A DNA stretch of 64,000 nt from a virus (IMGVR_UViG_3300032897_000003:14930-78929), one strand, 5' to 3'. Shown: positions 27,443-64,000, counted from the first letter of the stretch. The notes: a model not told the origin generated them from the letters alone. Program-made: numbers and translations.

Positions 27443-30121
27443 GTGCAGTACCAAGCAGATCTTGACAAGACCCCACCGCATGACCGAGCCGCAGAGCTCG
27501 CCGTGATCGGGTGCGCTCTGGTCACGCCAGAGGCTATCGTAGAGGTCGGAGAGCTGTACCCGACCGACTTTTTCTCGCAGGAATGTCAGGAGGCTTGGGG
27601 GGCGATCCAAGGCCTCGTCGGTGAAAGCTTGGCAGTAGATATCGTGACCGTTGGACAGCGGCTGAAGGACTCCGGGTGCGCGGATCGGTTTGAGGGCGGT
27701 TGGGCAACCTGGGCGGTTTCGGCGAGCTCGAATGTTCCAACCGTGCACAACGTGAAGCATTACGCAGACATCGTCCGTAACAAGGCTATCTTGCGCAAGC
27801 TGATCGCAGTGGCCATCGAGACGATGTCGAGAAGCTATTCAGGGGCGAAGGCCGAGGACGTGTTGCTCGACCTCACTTCAGCCGTGTCGGAGCTTCAAAC
27901 CAGGGCCACGAGCAAAGAGCCTGCGCTGCTGAAAGACGCCATTCCAGTCGCCATCGAAACCATCAGCATGAAGTGCGACCCGAGAAATCACAACGTGCTG
28001 GTGCGGACAGGAATAGCCCCCTTGGACGCACACATCGGAGGGTTGGCACCGGAGGAAATGGTTGTTGTCGCGGCCAGGCCTGGAGTCGGGAAAACGAGCT
28101 GGGCGAATGGAGTGGCTGAGTACGCGGCTGGAGTTTGCGGGATACCGACTCTGTACATCTCCGTCGAGATGTCCCAGCAGCAGCAAATCGAGAGGTTCAT
28201 TTCGATGGAGAGCGGGATCCCTGCGACGGCATTCCGCTCGGGAAGAATCGACGGGAAGACGCTGACCCTGGACCATCACAAGAAGGTCCTGCAAGTAGGC
28301 GAGCGGCTGATGAAGATGCCGCTCTGGATAGACGCCGAGTCGATGACCCTCGGGCGTATCTTGAGCACCTCTCGACGGTGGCACGCAAAGCACGCGGTTG
28401 CCTCCGGCATGAAGATTTGTCTCATCGTCATCGACTACCTGCAGCTCATAGCAATGCAGGCGCAGGAGAAGCCTATCCCACGCGAGCAGCAGGTAGCGAT
28501 GATTTCGAAGTCCTGCAAGTGGCTGGCGAAGACTCTGAAGTGCCCGGTGCTCGTGTGCAGCCAGCTCAATCGCAAGGTGGAGGAGCGAGGTGGGGAGCCA
28601 GTGTTGTCGGACTTGAGGGAGTGCCTTACCGGCGAAACGCGCATCTGGGACGCAGCTACGGGAGGGACGGTCTCCGTGCGCGATTTGTCAGCCGGCGGAA
28701 ATGCTCTCGTGTGGGGTATTCGCGACCGGTACCAGATCGGATCCGCAATGGTGAGTAAGGCCTGGTCGACAGGCGTAAAGCCGGTGTACCGAGTGCAAAC
28801 CGCCAGTGGCCGGGTGATACGAGCAACCGGGAATCATCCGTTCCTGACGGTTAGTGGATGGACGAAACTTGCCGAGGTGGCGCTCGGAGAGCGTATCGCT
28901 GTACCACGCTTCATCCCGCAGCATGCGTGTAAGTATAACCCGCACACCGTCGACCAGCTTCGTCTGCTCGGGTTCCTGATTTCCGACGGACACTATGGAA
29001 AGAACAGGTCGGTCGGATACGTGAAGGGAGACCACGTCCTTGTCGACGAGGTCCGGAGGATAGCGAAGTCCTCCTTTGGTATCGACGCCAAAGATCATCC
29101 CTGCCATGGAATCGCACAGCAGATCGAGCTCACCACGAAGCAAGCTGGCCCGGGGTGCAATCCGGTGATCAACTGGCTGAAGGCGCTTGGCGTTCACGGT
29201 CAGTTGGGTCCGAAAAAGCGGATACCAGAATCGGTGTTTACCTGCGACAATGACCATGTTGCGGAATTTCTGGGTGCACTTTGGTCAGGCGATGGCTCTG
29301 TGGTTCAGAGGAAGACGGGGGGATGGGTACTCAAGTTCGCATCGACCAGCAGAGGACTCCTGCAAGACATCCAGCGCATGCTGTTGCGCTTCGGAATCGT
29401 GAGCGTGTTGGGTAATCCAAGACGCAACAGCAAGTCGACGATGGACATAGCCACTGTCACGATCGGAGATGGGGATGCAATTGCCGCATTTGCAAGGCAG
29501 ATTAGGCTCCATGGTGAGAAGCAGCGAAAACTGGAGATTGCTGCCCAATGGGTTGCCAGCGAGCGCGAGCATGAAAATGCCAGGGCAGATCGCATGCCAA
29601 TCGAAATCACTGCTCATGTTTCGGCATTGAAAGAGAAGCGTGGATGGTCATGGGAAGAACTAGGATATCGCTGTCAGAAAAAGGAGATGAGCCGCGCTTC
29701 TCTGGGCAAAGTCGCTCGTAAGCTCGACGACGACAAACTGCTTGCCCTTTCCGATAGCGACATCCTGTGGGATCAGGTCGTGGCAATTTCCCCGGACGGC
29801 AACGAAGAAGTGTTCGATGTCTCAGTGCCAGCCATGGGGAACTTTGTCGCCGATGGCTTTTTTGTCCATAACAGCGGCGCCATAGAGCAAGATGCAGACA
29901 TCGTGTTCTTTCTGCACCGGTCGGAGGATGAACAGAGCACCGTCGAAGGCGAAGTCATCTCGTGGCTCATCGCCGGAAAGAACCGCAACGGCCCGGTCGG
30001 AAAGTACAAGATGAAATTCGTTGGCGGGCGGACGAAGTTCTTCGGTGCCGAGCAGGATGACGACGGGGCCCGGGACGCCATGGGCGATCCTGCCGATGAT
30101 CCACATTGGAGCGACAGATGA
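27443..30121 (+). CDS. dnaB: replicative DNA helicase DnaB, intein-containing
   Basis: PPHD.AAELAVIG, AARPGVGKT, VIDYLQLI, SQLNR, LSDLRE|...|SGAIEQDADIV. Confidence 0.95.
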   Translation: MQYQADLDKTPPHDRAAELAVIGCALVTPEAIVEVGELYPTDFFSQECQEAWGAIQGLVGESLAVDIVTVGQRLKDSGCADRFEGGWATWAVSASSNVPTVHNVKHYADIVRNKAILRKLIAVAIETMSRSYSGAKAEDVLLDLTSAVSELQTRATSKEPALLKDAIPVAIETISMKCDPRNHNVLVRTGIAPLDAHIGGLAPEEMVVVAARPGVGKTSWANGVAEYAAGVCGIPTLYISVEMSQQQQIERFISMESGIPATAFRSGRIDGKTLTLDHHKKVLQVGERLMKMPLWIDAESMTLGRILSTSRRWHAKHAVASGMKICLIVIDYLQLIAMQAQEKPIPREQQVAMISKSCKWLAKTLKCPVLVCSQLNRKVEERGGEPVLSDLRECLTGETRIWDAATGGTVSVRDLSAGGNALVWGIRDRYQIGSAMVSKAWSTGVKPVYRVQTASGRVIRATGNHPFLTVSGWTKLAEVALGERIAVPRFIPQHACKYNPHTVDQLRLLGFLISDGHYGKNRSVGYVKGDHVLVDEVRRIAKSSFGIDAKDHPCHGIAQQIELTTKQAGPGCNPVINWLKALGVHGQLGPKKRIPESVFTCDNDHVAEFLGALWSGDGSVVQRKTGGWVLKFASTSRGLLQDIQRMLLRFGIVSVLGNPRRNSKSTMDIATVTIGDGDAIAAFARQIRLHGEKQRKLEIAAQWVASEREHENARADRMPIEITAHVSALKEKRGWSWEELGYRCQKKEMSRASLGKVARKLDDDKLLALSDSDILWDQVVAISPDGNEEVFDVSVPAMGNFVADGFFVHNSGAIEQDADIVFFLHRSEDEQSTVEGEVISWLIAGKNRNGPVGKYKMKFVGGRTKFFGAEQDDDGARDAMGDPADDPHWSDR
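28622..29872 (+). mobile_element. intein with LAGLIDADG homing endonuclease in DnaB (417 aa)
   Basis: Starts CLTGET, block B ATGNHPF, LGFLISDG and FLGALWSGDG, ends FVHN before Ser. Confidence 0.95.
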
Positions 30122-30308
30122 CGCCACAAAGCCGCAAGCTCTGGAGGATCCACGACAAGGCCTTCCGCCAAGCCAAGGCAGATGGGGCATGCTTCGACTG
30201 CGCAACTGACGCCGGGTTCGCTGCGACGGATACCGTCGCCGGACAAACGAGGGTGGCCAAGCTTTGCCCGAAGTGCACACGCAACACGAAGGAAAGGACG
30301 ACACCATC

Positions 30309-30728
30309 ATGGCCATGCTGAGACGACTGCCCGTAAAGCTCACCAACGAGGAGTTGCTTGACCGGAGCAAGTCCCTAACCACGGAGCTCGACAAGAAGGA
30401 CGCCCTAACTGCCAAGAAGAAAAGCGAGGCGGAGAAGATCGCGGGCGACATCGCCCTAGTCGAGGAAGGAATCCAAGCCCTGCGAAAAGCGCTCCGTGAC
30501 GGAGAAGAAGAGCGCGATGTCGAGTGCCACGTGCACAGGGACTTCGACAACCACACGGTGGTGACGATCCGTAACGACACCGGCGAAATCATCGAGGAGC
30601 GGCCCATGACCCAAGCCGAGCTGCAGACGTCACTGCTCGACCGTGGCGCCGAGCAACACGGGAAGCTTCTCGCAATCAACGGCGACAAGCCGAAGGGAGA
30701 CGAAGAGAAGGACAAGCCGAAGAACTGA
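30309..30728 (+). CDS. hypothetical coiled-coil phage protein
   Basis: RRLPVKLT.EE...RNDTGEIIEERPMT.AELQ. Confidence 0.65.
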   Translation: MAMLRRLPVKLTNEELLDRSKSLTTELDKKDALTAKKKSEAEKIAGDIALVEEGIQALRKALRDGEEERDVECHVHRDFDNHTVVTIRNDTGEIIEERPMTQAELQTSLLDRGAEQHGKLLAINGDKPKGDEEKDKPKN

Positions 30729-30769
30729 ACCGACACACGAGGCTGGACCACCATTCGAAAGGAGACCAT

Positions 30770-31432
30770 ATGCGACGACCGAAACCACCTACGAGCATCA
30801 ACAACGTCAACGTCAGCCCGACAGCACCAGCGGACAAGCCCGGCGGAGAAAACCCGATCGAGGTTACGATCCGTCCGCTGAACCTGCAGCGCACGACCAT
30901 CAAGATCCGCGGCATCAGCACGCTGATCATGCACGCCTGGAGTCAGAAGGCCATCAAGATGATCGAGGACAAGCAGCAGAAGAAAGCCACGGGGCCGCGG
31001 AAGGCGAAGGACCCGCAGGCCGACTTCGAGAGCGCGCGATATCGCATCGACAAGAACACGGACGGGATCCCGGCCATCGCGCTGAAAGCGTGCGCTGTCG
31101 AGGCCGGCGTGTTGCTCGGGCTGAAGAAGACGAACTTGCGTAAGTCCTTCTTCGTTGGGCCCGACGGCGAGGAGCTCATCCCCATCATCGTGGCCGAAGA
31201 GCCAGCGATGAGGCGGGACATGGTGCGAGTCGGGATGGGCACCAGCGACGTGCGGTACCGACCGGAGTACAAGGACTGGAGCTGCGAGATTCCGATCGAG
31301 TTCAACGCCGACGCGATCTCGGCCGACCAGCTCGTCAACCTGTTCGACCAGGGCGGGTACTCCGTCGGGGTCGGCGAGTGGCGGCCCGAAAAGGACGGGA
31401 CGCACGGAAGATTCAGGGTGGTAAGCGAATAG
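30770..31432 (+). CDS. stand-alone Cas7/RAMP-like RNA-binding protein (candidate effector of the adjacent repeat array)
   Basis: RRM-like beta1 IKIRGISTLIMH, GIPAIALKA (compare RAMP IPGSSLKG), C-terminal Gly-rich loop GVGEWRPEKDGTHGRFRV; AAGGAG RBS. Confidence 0.7.
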   Translation: MRRPKPPTSINNVNVSPTAPADKPGGENPIEVTIRPLNLQRTTIKIRGISTLIMHAWSQKAIKMIEDKQQKKATGPRKAKDPQADFESARYRIDKNTDGIPAIALKACAVEAGVLLGLKKTNLRKSFFVGPDGEELIPIIVAEEPAMRRDMVRVGMGTSDVRYRPEYKDWSCEIPIEFNADAISADQLVNLFDQGGYSVGVGEWRPEKDGTHGRFRVVSE

Positions 31433-31438
31433 CTGCCC

Positions 31439-32053
31439 ATGCTGAACCACCTGGCACAGTTGCCGCGCCCTTCCCTCGACCTGACAGAAGGAGACTGTGA
31501 GATCGTCCGCAAGACGCTCGAGCAGTTGAAGTCGGAAGGGCGTGCGACACCAGATGCATTCCTCACCGCAGCGGAGCCGGAGGACAGTCCGCTCCATAAG
31601 TTTTTCGAGTGGGACAACGACCGGGCTGCGCACGAGCACCGCCTACTGCAGGCGCGCCAGCTCGTTCGCACGGTTGTTCTTCGTCCCGTCCGCGTGGAGA
31701 CGACCAGGAAAACCATCAGCGTTCGCATAAATCCAAGCGTGCGAGAGGAGGATGAGGACGACGAGCGACCGGAGCCAAGACTGCCTCTTCCGACCCCGAT
31801 ACCAGAAACGCAGGTGACAAGAGGGAAAATCAAGGAGCTGGCGGATCGAATCGAGGATGCGCTCAAAGATGCCCGTGGAACCATGGACATCTTCGACGAG
31901 ATGAGAACGCTGCGCGAGATCTTGGCAGACCTACGGCAAAAAGCACCCTGGGAGGGAAAGCGTTGCCCGAAGTGCAGCTTGCTCGGGCATGCTCCAGGCT
32001 CACGCTTCTGCACCCCGGTGAACCAGTGTCTAGGAAGAAAGGCGATCGACTGA
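31439..32053 (+). CDS. conserved partner protein of the RAMP-like gene
   Basis: SPLHKFFEWDNDRAAHEHRLLQARQLVR motif; C-terminal CPKC...GH zinc knuckle; stop codon abuts the array. Confidence 0.65.
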   Translation: MLNHLAQLPRPSLDLTEGDCEIVRKTLEQLKSEGRATPDAFLTAAEPEDSPLHKFFEWDNDRAAHEHRLLQARQLVRTVVLRPVRVETTRKTISVRINPSVREEDEDDERPEPRLPLPTPIPETQVTRGKIKELADRIEDALKDARGTMDIFDEMRTLREILADLRQKAPWEGKRCPKCSLLGHAPGSRFCTPVNQCLGRKAID

Positions 32054-32056
32054 CAT

Positions 32057-32574
32057 GGCAGTAAGGGTTGGCTGGGCTTGTCTTGGATCGGCCGTCAGGT
32101 ACTGGCTAGTCTGGTCGTGGCTGCGCAGGCAGTCATGGCTGGTCGGGGCGTCGATTGGCGTGGCCGTCGGGTTTGGGAGCGGCCAGGAAAGGCGGGTCCA
32201 GGCCAGGCAGTATGGGCTGGTCATGGTCGGGACATGAAGGCTTGGCTAGGCAGGCAAGGCGAGGTACGTCGGATCATGGGTAGGAACGGCAGGCGTCGAA
32301 TGGCAAGGATGGGCCTCGGTGGCAAGGCCTGGCAGTCAGGGCTTGTCTGCGCCAGGAAGGGAATGGTTTGGACAGGCAGGGCATGGATCGGCAGGAGCGG
32401 CCAGGATTTGTTGGGACAGGCGGGTCAAGTCGTGGAGTGGCAGGCATGGCTAGTCTCGGCGACGACAGGAGGGGATGGGCAGGAAGTGCTAGGCTTGGTT
32501 TGTACCGGATCGGAGGGGCAGGCGGGGCTAGTTGTGGCCCGGAACGAAGCGGAAAGGCAGGGCAGGCATGGACG
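32057..32574 (+). repeat. 5-nt-periodic G(G/T)H-NN array in about 12 blocks delimited by GGCA/GGCC (candidate guide-RNA array)
   Basis: Delimiters at 32057, 32090, 32128, 32162, 32206, 32249, 32288, 32331, 32390, 32439, 32478, 32517, 32561, with pentamers between them. Confidence 0.85.
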
Positions 32575-32975
32575 TAGAGCAAATTGACTTGAACCACATC
32601 AAGAGAGCGGTGTTCGAGCTCGTCTGGAAGGAAGATGGGCGAGTCACGCTGTTCATCAACAAACACGACAGCCGCGTGTTCCCTCAACCGGGACCGGGGA
32701 TTCTTTCTTCAGGCAGCAAGAATGATCGGCATCTCAAGGCCGAAAGAGATGGGATTTCAGGAACGATATCCGTCCGTTGGAGAAGTGAGAGTGGTGGAAT
32801 CTCAAGCACGGCCAGCGAAGGGATCCCGCCAGTCGAGGTATTTCTTCCGTGGGAGTGCTTGGCCGGCATCTCGCTGGGCAATCCGAATGCTCCAGTGTTC
32901 GCTGGCGTTTGGGCTCTGTGGGAGGGCTTCACCTCGGACAATGACGTCGAGGTCCCGACGAAACAGATGTGCTGA
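32568..32975 (+). CDS. hypothetical protein, possible divergent SspB-like fold
   Basis: GRVTLFI...DGISGTIS...VFLPWECL resembles the 54196 SspB. Confidence 0.4.
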   Translation: MDVEQIDLNHIKRAVFELVWKEDGRVTLFINKHDSRVFPQPGPGILSSGSKNDRHLKAERDGISGTISVRWRSESGGISSTASEGIPPVEVFLPWECLAGISLGNPNAPVFAGVWALWEGFTSDNDVEVPTKQMC

Positions 32976-33155
32976 CGACTATGATGTTCACGGCGAAGAT
33001 AGGCGACATCCTCCGCTGGGACGCACAGTCGTGCTCGGTTCTTCTCGTGCATGCAGGCGACAATGCGGAGGCGGTGGCATTTCTGCGCAAGAACCGAGAC
33101 GCCATTGTGCAGGTGACCGTCGAACTGGCCAAAACGAAGGAGGTGAAATAGCCAG

Positions 33156-33659
33156 ATGCCACAGGCGCAGCTCTTTGCCGAGGAGCCCAGAGCGGTGTTC
33201 AGTGACGACCGTCGCTACCGGTATCGACTTTGGCGAACCGTCGAGGACGTTGCGATCCTGAAGCGCAAGGCGGTGATGATCGGGCTCAACCCGAGCATTG
33301 CCGACGAACACGTGTTGGACCCGACTCTGAAGAGGTTCTTGTCCTTCTGCCGACTCTGGGGCTGCTCGCGTATGGAGGTGGTCAACCTGTTCGCGCTCGT
33401 CAGCACTGATCCGTCCGGGCTGTACACGTGCGCTGATCCGGTCGGACCTGGGAACGACTTGGCCATCGACGTAGCTGTGGTCGATGCAGACGTCATTGTC
33501 GCATGCTGGGGAGCCCATCCAATGGCTGCGAAGCGGGCATCCGACGTGCTCAGTATGCTCGGTACCAGGCAGCTGATGTGCTTCGGGCGCAACCACGACG
33601 GCTCTCCCAAGCATCCGCTCTACCTGCCGAAGACGGCCGAGCTGTCGGTGTATGCATGA
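33156..33659 (+). CDS. DUF1643 family protein
   Basis: AVFSDDRRYRYRLWR, IGLNPSIAD..DPT, VNLFA, GSPKHPLY. Confidence 0.9.
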   Translation: MPQAQLFAEEPRAVFSDDRRYRYRLWRTVEDVAILKRKAVMIGLNPSIADEHVLDPTLKRFLSFCRLWGCSRMEVVNLFALVSTDPSGLYTCADPVGPGNDLAIDVAVVDADVIVACWGAHPMAAKRASDVLSMLGTRQLMCFGRNHDGSPKHPLYLPKTAELSVYA

Positions 33660-34015
33660 CCACGCTAGATTCGGTACTGGAAGTGCTGCGCGGGATGCGC
33701 ATCATGTTCTCGGACGAGAAGGAGCTACAGGACGCGGTCGAGAAGGCGATGACGACCGCGAGTATCCCTCACCAGCGAGAGGCTATCCTCGGGCCTCGCG
33801 ACCGGATCGACTTCATGGCGGACGGGGGGATCGGAATCGAGTGCAAGATCGACCACAGCCGGGCGGACTTGCTGAGACAGCTGTTCCGCTACAGCAAACA
33901 GCCACAGGTGCGCGTCTTGGTTGTGGTGCTAGGGAAGCTGCGACTGTCCGCGCTCCCTACCGAGATGAACAACATCCCCATCCACGTGGTCAACCTCGTG
34001 AGGGCCTTCGTTTGA
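33656..34015 (+). CDS. small PD-(D/E)XK nuclease-like protein
   Basis: E.ELQ...RE...RIDF...IGIECK...QL.RY. Confidence 0.6.
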   Translation: MTTLDSVLEVLRGMRIMFSDEKELQDAVEKAMTTASIPHQREAILGPRDRIDFMADGGIGIECKIDHSRADLLRQLFRYSKQPQVRVLVVVLGKLRLSALPTEMNNIPIHVVNLVRAFV

Positions 34016-36951
34016 GCGGGCAAGTCTCTCTATTCTCGAAAGTAGCCGAACCTGCGGCTAAGTCTGCACATGCTGGGGTGGTCAGAGCGGTACGAATCTA
34101 CGGGAAGGTGATCTACAACGTGGCCAAGCGGGCCTGGGAGATCGACTGCGAGCCGCAGGTAAGGCAGCGTCTGAAACGGGTGTTTCCGCGGATCAAGGCG
34201 GGAGCGGTCGACCTTTGCCTCGAGGACAACATCGACGCCGGGCGGGACCTGGCGTGGTTTCTCGATCGCTATCCAATGGAGATCTCACCGGCAGACATGC
34301 GGCTCTTGCGCGAGCGAGAGACCGAGCACCGCGTGCTGGTTGAGGACATCGGACGGATCATGCAGTCGGACTATGTGCCGACGGACATCACGTTGGCAAT
34401 ACCGCTGCGCAACTACCAGGCGCAGGCAGTCGATCTGACGAAGCGGGTGTTCGGGCTGCTCGATGCGGATGATCTCGGAGTCGGGAAGACAGCCATTGGA
34501 ATCGGATTGCTGGCCGATCCAAGGGCGCGTCCGGCGCTGGTCGTTACGTTGACCCACCTACCCGGGCAGTGGAAGCGCGAGATCGAACGGTTCGCCCCCG
34601 GACTCAACGTGCACATCCTGAAGAAGGGAACACCGTACAAGTTCGAGATCCGCGGCGGGCAGGAGTATTTCCCCGACGTCATCGTGACCAACTACCACAA
34701 GCTGGTCGGGTGGGCCGAAGAGCTACACGGCAAAGTCCAGACGGTGATCTTCGACGAGGCGCACGAGCTGAGGCGCAGCACGAGTGAGAAATACAGCGCT
34801 GCCAAGCGGGTCGCAGCAAAGTCGCGGTATAGGCTTGGGCTCACGGCAACCCCGATCTTCAACTTCGGTGGCGAGTTCTTCAATATCGCGGACGTGCTCC
34901 GCCCAGGAGATCTCGGAACGTGGGAGGAATTCTGCACGGAGTGGTGCAGTGGCTTCGCCGACAAGACGAAGGCCACCATTACGAAGCCGAAGGAGTTCGG
35001 GGCATACGTGCGCGAAGCTGGTTTGATGATCCGGCGTACGCGCAAAGAGGTTGGGCGCGAGCTGCCGCCGCTTACCATCTGCCCGCAGCTCGTCGATGCC
35101 GACCTGTTCTACTTGGACGAGATCGAGACCGAGGCCACCGCGCTGGCCAAGATCGTCTTGTCGGGAGGGGCTAACCCGTTCGAACAGCTGCGAGCAAGCC
35201 AGGAGCTGTCATGGAAGCTGCGCCAGGCCACTGGCGTCGCGAAGGCTCCTGCAGTAGCCGAGTTCACCCGCATGCTTGTGGAGGGGGAAGAATCGGTCGT
35301 GCTGTTCGGATGGCACCGTGAGGTGTACCGCATCTGGGCGGAGCGGCTGGCCGACCTCGAACCGGTGTTTTTCACGGGAGAGGAGACTCCAGGGCAGAAG
35401 GAGGCAGCCGCGCAGGCCTTCATCGGTAAGAAAACCAAGTTGCTCATCATGAGCCTGCGGGCCGGGGCAGGCATCGATGGCCTGCAGAAAGCCTGCAGGA
35501 CAGCCGTGTACGGTGAGATGGACTGGTCCCCGGCCGTGCACGAGCAGTGCCTCTCGAGCGATACCGAGATATTGACGCCAGCCGGATTTCTCGGGGTTGA
35601 CGCCGTAAAAGAGGGTGATGAGGTGGCTGCGTTCGACGCTGCGACCGGAGAGATTCGATGGGTTGCCGCGACGAGCAAGGTGGATCGAACTCTCGGCGAC
35701 GACGAACGGATGTACAGGTGCTACTCGAAGAAGGTCGATTTCCTGGTGACCGGGGATCACCGAATGGTCGTGAGGCGAAAAACCAGAACGACGGCAGGGG
35801 TTGGCAGGTCCCAGTGGGAGTTCGACATCGCTAGAAACATCGCGGGGTCGGCAAGACGCTTCATCCCTACGAGCGGGGTTCAGTCATCCGACGGTGTTCC
35901 TCTGAGTGACTATGAGCTAAGGCTGCTGGGATGGTTTGTGACCGACGGACATTTCAGTGGGCATCAATTGATCTTCTATCAGGCTGAACAACAGCCGTGG
36001 AATGAAGACCTCGTCGAGGTGCTCAACGGATGCGGCATCGGGTGGACGCTCTTTAAGCGACGAGTCGTGCGGCCAAGCGGGGTCACAGTGATGAACTGGT
36101 ACCACGTACCAAAGGGTAATTGCCCTCGGTGGTCAGAAGAGGAGCTAGACCAACTTCTGGCGGTGACAGGACTCCCCGAGAGACTGGCTCTGGCGAAGAA
36201 GATGGGCAGAACAGAGTATGCGCTATACAAAAAACAGAGAAAGTGGGCACAAGGAGAACGCCCGGTCCCGGTCAAAAAGCGAGCTGGGCGTGGATATGAA
36301 ACCTTGGAAAAATACCTCGATAAGAACCTCAGTCCACACCTCGACTCGATGACGAGAGAGCAATTGCGGGCTTTCCTTCGCGGAGTCAATATGGGCGATG
36401 GTGCGAAAGCGATGAAACTCAGCTACAAGATAACGAGCACGAACCGCTTGTTCTTCGACCGCCTCCAATCGCTCTGTGTGCGCCGTGGATTCTCTGCCAA
36501 TTTGTCGACGCGCAACGCAGTCACCAAAGCAGGGAAGCCGATTTATGATCTGTGGATTGCCGACAAGGCAGAGGCGTCAGTCGCGCGATCAGGTAAACCC
36601 GGAGGTTTCGCGGAATGTGCGACCGAGTCTAAAGTTAGGGTGTGGTGCCTCAGCAATGAGCTCGGCACTCTAGTCACGCGCAGGAATGGGAAGGTCGCGA
36701 TCGTCGGCAATTGCACTGGTCGTCTGTTGCGTGACGGACAACCGGATCCGGTGTTTGCCTATTACCTGCTGGCAGACTGTGGGAGCGACCCGGTCATCTC
36801 GGACGTGCTCGGGGTGAAGAGGGCGCAGCTGGAGGGGATTCGCGACCCGAGCGGAAATCTCATCGAGATGGCCCAAACTGATCCGGAACGGGTGAAGCGC
36901 TTGGCGGAGGCCTACTTAAGGCAGAGAAAAACGGCACCAGAGCGACAATAA
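34012..36951 (+). CDS. SNF2-family helicase, intein-containing
   Basis: LRNYQ, ADDLGVGKT, IFDEAH, LTATP, WSPAVHEQ|...|CTGRLLRDGQ. Confidence 0.9.
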   Translation: MSGQVSLFSKVAEPAAKSAHAGVVRAVRIYGKVIYNVAKRAWEIDCEPQVRQRLKRVFPRIKAGAVDLCLEDNIDAGRDLAWFLDRYPMEISPADMRLLRERETEHRVLVEDIGRIMQSDYVPTDITLAIPLRNYQAQAVDLTKRVFGLLDADDLGVGKTAIGIGLLADPRARPALVVTLTHLPGQWKREIERFAPGLNVHILKKGTPYKFEIRGGQEYFPDVIVTNYHKLVGWAEELHGKVQTVIFDEAHELRRSTSEKYSAAKRVAAKSRYRLGLTATPIFNFGGEFFNIADVLRPGDLGTWEEFCTEWCSGFADKTKATITKPKEFGAYVREAGLMIRRTRKEVGRELPPLTICPQLVDADLFYLDEIETEATALAKIVLSGGANPFEQLRASQELSWKLRQATGVAKAPAVAEFTRMLVEGEESVVLFGWHREVYRIWAERLADLEPVFFTGEETPGQKEAAAQAFIGKKTKLLIMSLRAGAGIDGLQKACRTAVYGEMDWSPAVHEQCLSSDTEILTPAGFLGVDAVKEGDEVAAFDAATGEIRWVAATSKVDRTLGDDERMYRCYSKKVDFLVTGDHRMVVRRKTRTTAGVGRSQWEFDIARNIAGSARRFIPTSGVQSSDGVPLSDYELRLLGWFVTDGHFSGHQLIFYQAEQQPWNEDLVEVLNGCGIGWTLFKRRVVRPSGVTVMNWYHVPKGNCPRWSEEELDQLLAVTGLPERLALAKKMGRTEYALYKKQRKWAQGERPVPVKKRAGRGYETLEKYLDKNLSPHLDSMTREQLRAFLRGVNMGDGAKAMKLSYKITSTNRLFFDRLQSLCVRRGFSANLSTRNAVTKAGKPIYDLWIADKAEASVARSGKPGGFAECATESKVRVWCLSNELGTLVTRRNGKVAIVGNCTGRLLRDGQPDPVFAYYLLADCGSDPVISDVLGVKRAQLEGIRDPSGNLIEMAQTDPERVKRLAEAYLRQRKTAPERQ
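35548..36711 (+). mobile_element. intein with LAGLIDADG endonuclease in the SNF2 helicase (388 aa)
   Basis: Starts CLSSDTEIL, block B VTGDHRM, LGWFVTDG and FLRGVNMGDG, ends RRNGKVAIVGN before Cys. Confidence 0.9.
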
Positions 36952-63519: not shown

Positions 63520-64000
63520 ATGAAAATAGAGCAACTGACGCCAGAACAGACAGAGATCTTGCCGAGCTATCGCAGCGAATGGTTTCGCTGGGGTACTTGC
63601 ACTGATCGCGCGGATCGATCCAAAGCGGAGGCAGCGATCCTTGCGATGCGGGACGAGATCGGCGTAACCAATCGCCCGATTGTCTTGTGGGGACGATCAC
63701 CGCTGGAATGCTTGCTGATCTTGGCGGTCATCAAAAGCAAAGCCTGGCAGGATGTGTGCGGCCAGCTCGGGGGCCAGCTCGGGGGCCAGCTCGGGGACCA
63801 GCTCAGGGACCAGCTCTGGGACCAGCTCAGGGGCCAGCTCGGGGGCCAGCTCAGGGGCCAGCTCGGGGGCCAGCTCAGGGGCCAGCTCGGGGGCCAGCTC
63901 AGGGGCCAGCTCGGGGACCAGCTCAGGGGCCAGCTCTGGGACCAGCTCTGGGACCAGCTCAGGGGCCAGCTCAGGGGCCAGCTCAGGGGCCAGCTCAGGG
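63520..64000 (+). CDS. DUF6745-like protein with tetrapeptide repeats (3'-truncated; not in the supplied ORF track)
   Basis: MKIEQLTPEQ...TDRADRSKAEAAI...W.RSP, then (G/D)QL(G/R/W) repeats. Confidence 0.75.
   Translation, partial: MKIEQLTPEQTEILPSYRSEWFRWGTCTDRADRSKAEAAILAMRDEIGVTNRPIVLWGRSPLECLLILAVIKSKAWQDVCGQLGGQLGGQLGDQLRDQLWDQLRGQLGGQLRGQLGGQLRGQLGGQLRGQLGDQLRGQLWDQLWDQLRGQLRGQLRGQLR
63760..64000 (+). repeat. 12-bp coding tandem repeat G(G/A)CCAGCTC(G/A/T)GG, about 20 copies to the window edge
   Basis: Directly visible in the sequence. Confidence 0.95.

Follow-up and report, generated by a model that had tools for sequence, protein, structure and literature searches.

A 64,000-nt stretch of viral DNA (IMGVR_UViG_3300032897_000003:14930-78929, one strand; called the window below, with positions counted from its first letter) very probably carries a phage-borne VIPR (Viral Interference Programmable Repeat) system, consisting of a vipr gene, a vap-like accessory gene and a staggered array of guides, and acting as proposed below. 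We identify it as such because a viral genome here encodes a RAMP protein with guanine-contacting residues, next to a pentamer array on its strand and together with an accessory gene, and because two of its guides, G9 and G10, have exact, wobble-aligned targets by the published rule of one skipped nucleotide. It is a genuine tail-less, GGCA-delimited ("staggered") VIPR, of a kind already described in 2026. The features are as follows.

30770..31432, + strand: vipr gene, encoding a 220-aa Vipr-family RAMP protein
31439..32053, + strand: vap-like accessory gene, 204 aa
32057..32567, + strand: guide RNA (vrRNA) array, about 88 pentamer units G-[G/T]-[C/A]-N-N in 12-14 blocks, with 4-nt steps that are mostly GGCA
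32166..32205, + strand: guide G4, 8 units; target not found in an exact IMG/VR scan
32335..32389, + strand: guide G9, 11 units; NN dinucleotides AG TT TG CA AG AT TT CA AG AT TC
32331-32334 and 32390-32393: GGCA delimiters flanking G9
32394..32438, + strand: guide G10, 9 units; NN dinucleotides GC CA TT TG CA GG AA GT GT
32390-32393 and 32439-32442: GGCA delimiters flanking G10
32521..32560, + strand: guide G13, 8 units; target not found in an exact IMG/VR scan
32561-32564, + strand: last GGCA delimiter
32568, + strand: ATG of the next gene

An earlier, sequence-only reading of this DNA had described the two open reading frames (ORFs), of 220 and 204 aa and separated by 6 nt, and an array beginning 3 nt past the second stop codon; all were found in place, as were the peptide motifs that it quoted from both proteins. 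It had also likened the locus to VIPR. That system is real, and its defining features (Vipr-family RAMP, array, accessory gene, viral genome) are all present here. Two departures from the known architecture had been claimed, degenerate units and a partner gene. The first stands, as the units are looser than GGY; the second does not, because vap genes are standard in VIPR loci.

VIPR was described in three bioRxiv preprints dated April to October 2026 (10.64898/2026.04.26.720920, 10.64898/2026.04.26.720927 and 10.64898/2026.10.15.759431). According to these, the Vipr RAMP forms polymers along a vrRNA, each GGY-NN repeat taking up a single protomer; the NN dinucleotides base-pair with the DNA, each third base of the target is skipped, and binding silences transcription. 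A typical locus holds vipr and one accessory vap gene (vap1-6), and most loci are viral. Seven types (I-VII) are distinguished, with variant pentamers (NNNGG, YNNNG and NNNNG are listed) and array forms. The minimal non-CRISPR layout, vipr plus an accessory gene, is present here. As to viral context, the source record (78,929 bp, estimated 99% complete) also encodes a large terminase and a tail protein.

The product of the first gene has about 38 disordered residues at its N-terminus, followed by an RRM core, a thumb and a G-loop, GVGEWRPEKDG. It matched the uncharacterised phage family phrog_4652 of PHROGs (1e-29) and nothing in Pfam or NCBIfam, and a single search returned 1306 homologues at E ≤ 0.001. 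With a profile of 36 homologues, the sole relevant solved structure matched was PDB 36pp_D, "SUSP1 Vipr protein" (E 1.3e-12). Alignment of the protein to SUSP1 Vipr by hhalign reached 98.3% probability, and tblastn identified coding sequence ALH47069 of phage phiSUSP1 as a homologue (3e-6). In SUSP1 Vipr, two guanines are held by H17, R138, D177 and W178, and R179 stacks on the third base (VIPR cryo-EM preprint). R164, E203, W204 and R205 of the present protein align with R138, D177, W178 and R179, the aspartate being replaced by glutamate, and all four are invariant or nearly so across the 36 homologues. H55 pairs with H17 by manual alignment of the first strand, IKIRGISTLIMH versus IKITGTRPFLSH (pattern IKIxGxxxLxxH). 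Also by manual alignment, and with low confidence, I103/A104 correspond to the pyrimidine-pocket residues E71/M72 of SUSP1, which are said to exclude purines at repeat position 3 (VIPR cryo-EM preprint). As a speculation, a roomier pocket at I103/A104 might account for the A found at position 3 in 32% of the units.

Autocorrelation of G along the array peaks at lags 5, 10, 15 and 20 (0.33, 0.29, 0.21 and 0.19) and is negative at lags 2-3. No 3-nt periodicity was seen in the tract by this measure, and together with the 5-nt period this indicates that the tract is not coding. We then scored 300-nt windows by the number of GG-GG pairs at lags 5 and 10 less the number at off-lags, a statistic that tolerates phase slips; it was preferred because register slips make the period-5 power spectrum (200-nt windows) underestimate the signal. 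The excess was 47 in the tract, against a mean of 0.5 (standard deviation 3.2) over the 64 kb, and the second-best score outside the tract's own neighbourhood was 9. In 1000 dinucleotide-shuffled versions of the tract, the observed value was never reached (z 9.9). The 5-nt periodicity announced by the sequence-only reading is thus borne out, and its unit, GGH/GTH followed by NN, is accurate for the curated segmentation, which has 88 units in 14 blocks: G stands at position 1 in 92% of the units, position 2 is G in 75% and T in 24%, position 3 is C in 58%, A in 32%, T in 8% and G in 2%, and positions 4-5 are near uniform. What its text lacked was the higher-order grammar, in which 4-nt GGCA steps divide the array into separate guides.

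That the tract is no guide RNA at all, and is instead coding or a G-rich DNA element (G-quadruplex, origin or packaging signal), is hardly credible. A frame of 169 aa does stay open across it (32078-32587), and GG every 5 nt could in principle form G-quadruplexes. However, the ORF matches no PHROG and the 3-nt periodicity is lacking, so that a coding tract was rejected; what is conserved beside vipr is the grammar rather than the translation, in 75 of 80 homologous loci and always on the vipr strand; and the NN strings match conserved genes far above chance, with 21 matches at 22 read bases where about 0.1 was roughly expected. Candidates of another kind, a structured RNA or a ribozyme-interspersed array, were discarded as well: the array is not notably structured (fold z-score of only -1.7), and no Rfam family or ribozyme matched it even at E ≤ 1.

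At intervals of 39-59 nt, the pentamer register slips back by exactly 1 nt, in nearly all cases at a 4-nt GGCA that precedes a G. The second half of the array (32253-32564) is regular, 7-11 units being followed by GGCA, except in block G8, which has a CGGT step. The array is adjacent to vipr, on its strand, and has the at least four units of a VIPR pentamer array, with a consensus, G[G/T][C/A]NN, looser than GGY. Staggered vrRNA arrays, in which vrRNAs overlap by 1 nt and the end of one is the start of the next, are mentioned in the legend of fig. S18 of one preprint (10.64898/2026.04.26.720920). The drop of exactly 1 nt at each GGCA/G junction is alike, and the array here fits this published form, an identity that we infer because its basis is a figure legend giving neither type assignment nor delimiter sequence.

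The VIPR of Escherichia phage phiSUSP1 (type II; KT454805; PDB 36pp/36pk) shows the same order of vipr, accessory gene and a downstream, same-strand array of about 0.5 kb. Thumb and G-loop are homologous, the residues holding G1 and G2 are kept, and in both systems the guides are made of pentamers and their targets, aligned to the codon wobble position, lie in catalytic motifs encoded by competing elements. The two proteins share only about 35% identity over 79 residues. The vrRNAs of SUSP1 are separate units of about 100 nt; every one is preceded by a sequence of its own, has a pseudoknot as its 3' tail and is built of strict GGT/GGC units, whereas the array studied here is continuous and tail-less, with 4-nt GGCA delimiters and G[G/T][C/A] units. 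The discrete vrRNAs of about 100 nt with a conserved 3' tail that mark type II were not found in it, GGCA steps standing in the tails' place.

The grammar is a family trait. The sequence-only reading had proposed to look for 5-nt GG periodicity next to homologues, and in 80 viral loci encoding Vipr homologues of 39-55% identity, a GG-period-5 array of at least 150 nt was found on the vipr strand in 75, two loci scoring on the opposite strand as well. In 1.35 Mb of control loci devoid of vipr, three marginal calls were made, none of which was a real array on inspection. The family arrays contain 629 4-nt steps versus 106 6-nt steps, and 405 of the 629 are GGCA. The spacing between successive steps has its mode at 44-64 nt, and GG is followed by C in 62% and by T in 24% of cases. 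Both the G[G/T][C/A] degeneracy and the GGCA steps recur across the clade.

Targets were searched by joining the NN dinucleotides of a guide with one wildcard base between them, following the published 1-nt skip. G9, with 22 read bases, had 21 exact matches in JGI metagenome contigs, for a chance expectation of about 0.1 (a rough estimate made before the scan). All 21 fall in one family of transposases of about 400 aa with SWIM and DDE_Tnp_1 domains, at NEILCKILCHNL, just after the YREK signature. The target gene is on the opposite strand, the skips are on wobble positions, and 15 distinct footprints were counted. Homology among the target contigs ends about 100-250 nt beyond the transposase gene, so that the target behaves as an insertion sequence. 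The exact peptide NEILCKILCHNL occurs in 12 of the closest 120 protein clusters, and G9 therefore fits a subfamily. The inner 20 read bases of G9 had no match in IMG/VR. The case for the transposase as predicted target of G9 is overwhelming.

G10, with 18 read bases, had 13 exact matches in IMG/VR, all in a single gene family of about 500 aa. This family scores as "dCTPase" in PADLOC (E 1e-140 to 1e-175) and has a dCMP/cytidine deaminase zinc-binding domain; we take it to be the AvcD-type dCTP deaminase family of anti-phage defence. The footprint is the zinc motif TTFPCHNCA, the target gene is again on the opposite strand, and all skipped bases are codon third positions. Among GTDB species-representative genomes, at least 120 exact matches were obtained; 119 of the 120 listed lie in ORFs fitting the dCTPase-family profile, and the listed matches comprise 111 distinct footprint sequences from isolates and metagenome-assembled genomes (MAGs) of many phyla. 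G10 covers positions 1 and 2 of each of nine successive codons, and matches exactly in more than 130 diverged dCTPase-family sequences from many phyla, regardless of synonymous differences between them. At least 15 of the 18 positions were matched in 76 of 80 dCTPase-family loci from IMG/VR, a biased sample since these loci were retrieved by a peptide pattern that includes TTFPCHNCA. The case for the dCTP deaminase as predicted target of G10 is strong, but on one guide: among the other guides of the window and 525 guides from the 80 homologous arrays, none matched a dCTP deaminase or insertion sequence above shuffled controls, and a convergence of several guides on one target was rejected on that ground.

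The two targets fix the reading of the array. Every NN of G9 and G10 matches, including those of the "degenerate" units TGTTG, CGCCA and GTCAA, so that the register is set and non-GGY units are read. The NN of the flanking GGCA(G) mismatches the target, as seen for G10, which makes GGCA a guide boundary. As the skipped base falls on the codon third position, a guide reads a protein motif rather than a single allele. In both decoded targets, the sequence identical to the NN is on the template strand, which may be chance with two cases only; a vrRNA of this orientation would be complementary to the coding strand and to the mRNA.

Two NN-permuted controls of G10 gave 4 matches (three near-identical copies and one other) and 2 unrelated matches, respectively. 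G4 gave 13 matches, four of them identical and the others unrelated, many with stops in the aligned frame, and G13 gave 1. About two independent unrelated matches are thus found per 18-base pattern, and from one to about ten per 16-base pattern. Clusters of deeply diverged homologues agreeing at every read position were obtained for G9 and G10 only. The G9 pattern, with as many as 2 mismatches allowed, was not found in any of 50 genomes that have the G10 footprint. With up to 1 mismatch, it was also absent from 401 sampled genomes of the phylum of one such genome, an Archangium MAG; this phylum was sampled because some relatives of the transposase are labelled Polyangia. None of the guides matches the phage's own 78.9-kb genome above NN-shuffled controls, and self-targeting was rejected on this basis; the VIPR preprints likewise report no self-targets for other VIPRs. 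The phage genome itself encodes no dCTP deaminase-like or SWIM-DDE gene.

Several observations weigh against a working VIPR system. Of the four guides compared with public collections, just two have a target that can be identified. Regularity is lacking in the first 200 nt or so of the array, where the delimiters are GGCC, CGCA and TGAA, and A at position 3 in 32% and T at position 2 in 24% of units go beyond the GGY rule. A 3' tail or ribozyme of the SUSP1 type is not present in the array. On the protein side, similarity to SUSP1 Vipr is confined to about 75 C-terminal residues, the C-terminal third, and the N-terminal H55/H17 correspondence depends on manual alignment.

Some of these points would also be expected from a decaying remnant, with a degenerate array and relics for target matches: units that deviate from GGY, irregular delimiters in 32057-32250, several blocks of just 2-6 units, and two of four scanned guides that have no target. 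We consider such decay very unlikely. Both ORFs are intact and all family-invariant residues are kept; 22 of 22 and 18 of 18 read positions match for the two guides, including the NN of the "degenerate" units; and the same G[G/T][C/A] degeneracy and GGCA steps are found clade-wide.

The homology, fold, residues, array grammar, co-occurrence of array and vipr, and exact gapped matches, all observed here, can be set beside the SUSP1 work, from which we infer transcription, GGCA processing, filament assembly, DNA binding and silencing. By this analogy, the array transcript would yield about a dozen short vrRNAs of 5-11 pentamers each, bounded by the 4-nt GGCA step, on which Vipr protomers would polymerise, one per pentamer. 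The G-[G/T]-[C/A] triplet would be sequestered via H55, R164, E203, W204 and R205, and the NN dinucleotides presented. The filament would then bind double-stranded DNA matching NN-x-NN-x, with one skipped base per unit, and block transcription. In this scheme, G9 would read NEILCKILCHNL beside the YREK catalytic signature of the SWIM-DDE insertion-sequence transposase, and G10 the zinc-binding TTFPCHNCA of the AvcD-type dCTP deaminase defence gene. For the phage, in our view, the gain would be the silencing of a resident mobile element and of a defence gene.

What the system is for may be weighed on G10. It could be a pan-family silencer of a bacterial immune gene, VIPR acting as an RNA-guided counter-defence against nucleotide-depletion immunity, while G9 would protect the phage or lysogen from transposition; we put this forward tentatively, as slightly short of an even bet. 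A somewhat doubtful but serious alternative is that VIPR works in competition between elements only, the dCTP deaminase match reflecting rival prophages or mobile elements that carry the gene. All 13 IMG/VR matches of G10 are indeed on contigs classed as viral or proviral, the other decoded guide aims at a mobile element, the insertion-sequence transposase, and published targets are satellites, prophage regulators and other VIPRs. It is less easily reconciled with the breadth of the exact footprint, which occurs in 119 or more species-representative genomes spread over many phyla and in 111 distinct wobble variants; this suggests that G10 reads the catalytic motif of the gene wherever the gene sits. 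Moreover, silencing the gene would remove a defence function whichever element carries it.

Phage-encoded CRISPR-Cas and anti-CRISPR RNAs are other counter-defence routes that use guide RNAs or decoy RNAs. If G10 acts as predicted, the likeness lies in a guide RNA that neutralises a host defence; unlike those routes, its proposed action is transcriptional silencing by a gapped guide that reads a protein motif, and neither cleavage nor decoy binding. In the accessible parts of the VIPR preprints, no defence-gene (counter-defence) target is described.

Taken simply as a VIPR locus, the present one adds little, the family having been described in 2026 and its visible members running into the thousands (1306 homologues from a single search). 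Its value lies first in being a clean instance, found in nature, of a tail-less "staggered" array, with a GGCA delimiter common to a large clade that includes well-studied mycobacteriophages, and its two decoded targets fix the register and indicate the same reading for G[G/T][C/A] units as for GGY units. Beyond what the available portions of the preprints contain, it brings a pair of decoded natural targets, in particular the catalytic zinc motif of the widespread dCTP deaminase. A named gene of anti-phage defence is thereby connected with a guide of a phage VIPR, in a form testable at the bench for targets beyond E. coli and Pseudomonas. It suggests that gapped guides aim at invariant catalytic motifs of host immunity as well as of rival mobile elements.

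The accessory protein begins with a conserved helical domain (SPLHxFFEWDxxxAAxxHRLxQARxL), which a disordered linker joins to a helical hairpin; the C-terminus is rich in Cys. It matches phrog_15946 (6e-14) and belongs to a family of 5570 representatives. In at least 48 of the 80 homologous viral loci, the sequence that directly follows vipr on its strand encodes a homologue of this N-terminal domain. Its AlphaFold2 model (pLDDT 77.5) had no informative fold match, and by BLAST it is unrelated to the accessory protein of SUSP1.

Neither a CRISPR-like tandem or repeat-spacer array nor an Rfam match, CRISPR repeats included, was found in the window, and the sequence-only reading had likewise recognised no CRISPR array. 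Its statement that cas genes are absent also holds within the scope of Pfam, PHROG and NCBIfam scans of the larger ORFs, where none was recognised. The locus therefore does not have the repeat-spacer array and companion cas genes of a class 1 CRISPR-Cas effector. It differs from Cas7/Csm3 of class 1 CRISPR in lacking a CRISPR array, other cas genes (by these general scans) and a second RRM, in being phage-encoded, and in its step of 5 nt with 2 read bases, as opposed to 6 nt with 5 read bases.

Two related loci illustrate variation in the clade. The closest IMG/VR relative (IMGVR_UViG_3300032770_000003, locus L002; 55% identity) has its vipr gene flanked by arrays, which together amount to about 1.7 kb, and a vap-like gene after the downstream array. 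The order there is vipr-array-vap, and gene order in the clade is thus flexible.

L002, 2021-2840, 3551-4440 and 4418-4969: arrays and vap region

In Mycobacterium phage Brocalys (NC_031262; locus L337), gp45 and gp46 are annotated "hypothetical protein"; gp45 is 35% identical over 97% of the protein, and is directly preceded by a GGCNN array with GGCA steps (L337 2170-2395). The array is of the same kind as ours and differs in its upstream position and in its surroundings, the immunity and excision region of a temperate phage: gp45-gp46 adjoin the immunity repressor, antirepressor and excisionase of this cluster-A-type temperate mycobacteriophage. Judged by its sequence, the gp45-gp46 region is an unannotated VIPR locus. 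Phage records with Vipr homologues include about 27 from Mycobacterium and 6 from Gordonia.

In the window, the VIPR locus is surrounded by replication genes (DUF1376, DnaB helicase with an intein, DUF1643 and SNF2 helicase), and sits between two helicase genes:

27443-30121: DnaB-type helicase gene, intein with LAGLIDADG domain (Intein_splicing 1e-22)
33652-36951: SNF2-family helicase gene, with weaker Hint and LAGLIDADG matches

The latter matches suggest that the SNF2-family helicase carries a second intein. No sigma-70-like promoter and no intrinsic terminator on the + strand was found in 30000-33200. A motif, CGACAATAAT, occurs 10 times with up to 1 mismatch in place of 1.45 expected, nine of the ten being on the + strand:

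17280, 21042, 23139, 25476, 27416, 36943, 51787, 63037 and 63504, + strand: CGACAATAAT sites, up to 1 mismatch

It is probably a phage-specific promoter or regulatory site. It is absent between 27416 and 36943, that is, within the VIPR region, which would place the locus inside one long unit between these positions. The absence of an internal promoter, terminator and CGACAATAAT is consistent with co-transcription of vipr, vap and array, which are probably carried on one message.

At the far end of the window (63760-64000), a 12-nt tandem repeat, GGCCAGCTCAGG, is present in 20 copies with 91% matches, and ends at the last base, where the virus record ends too. Possible explanations are a terminal repeat, a repetitive coding region or an artefact of assembly.

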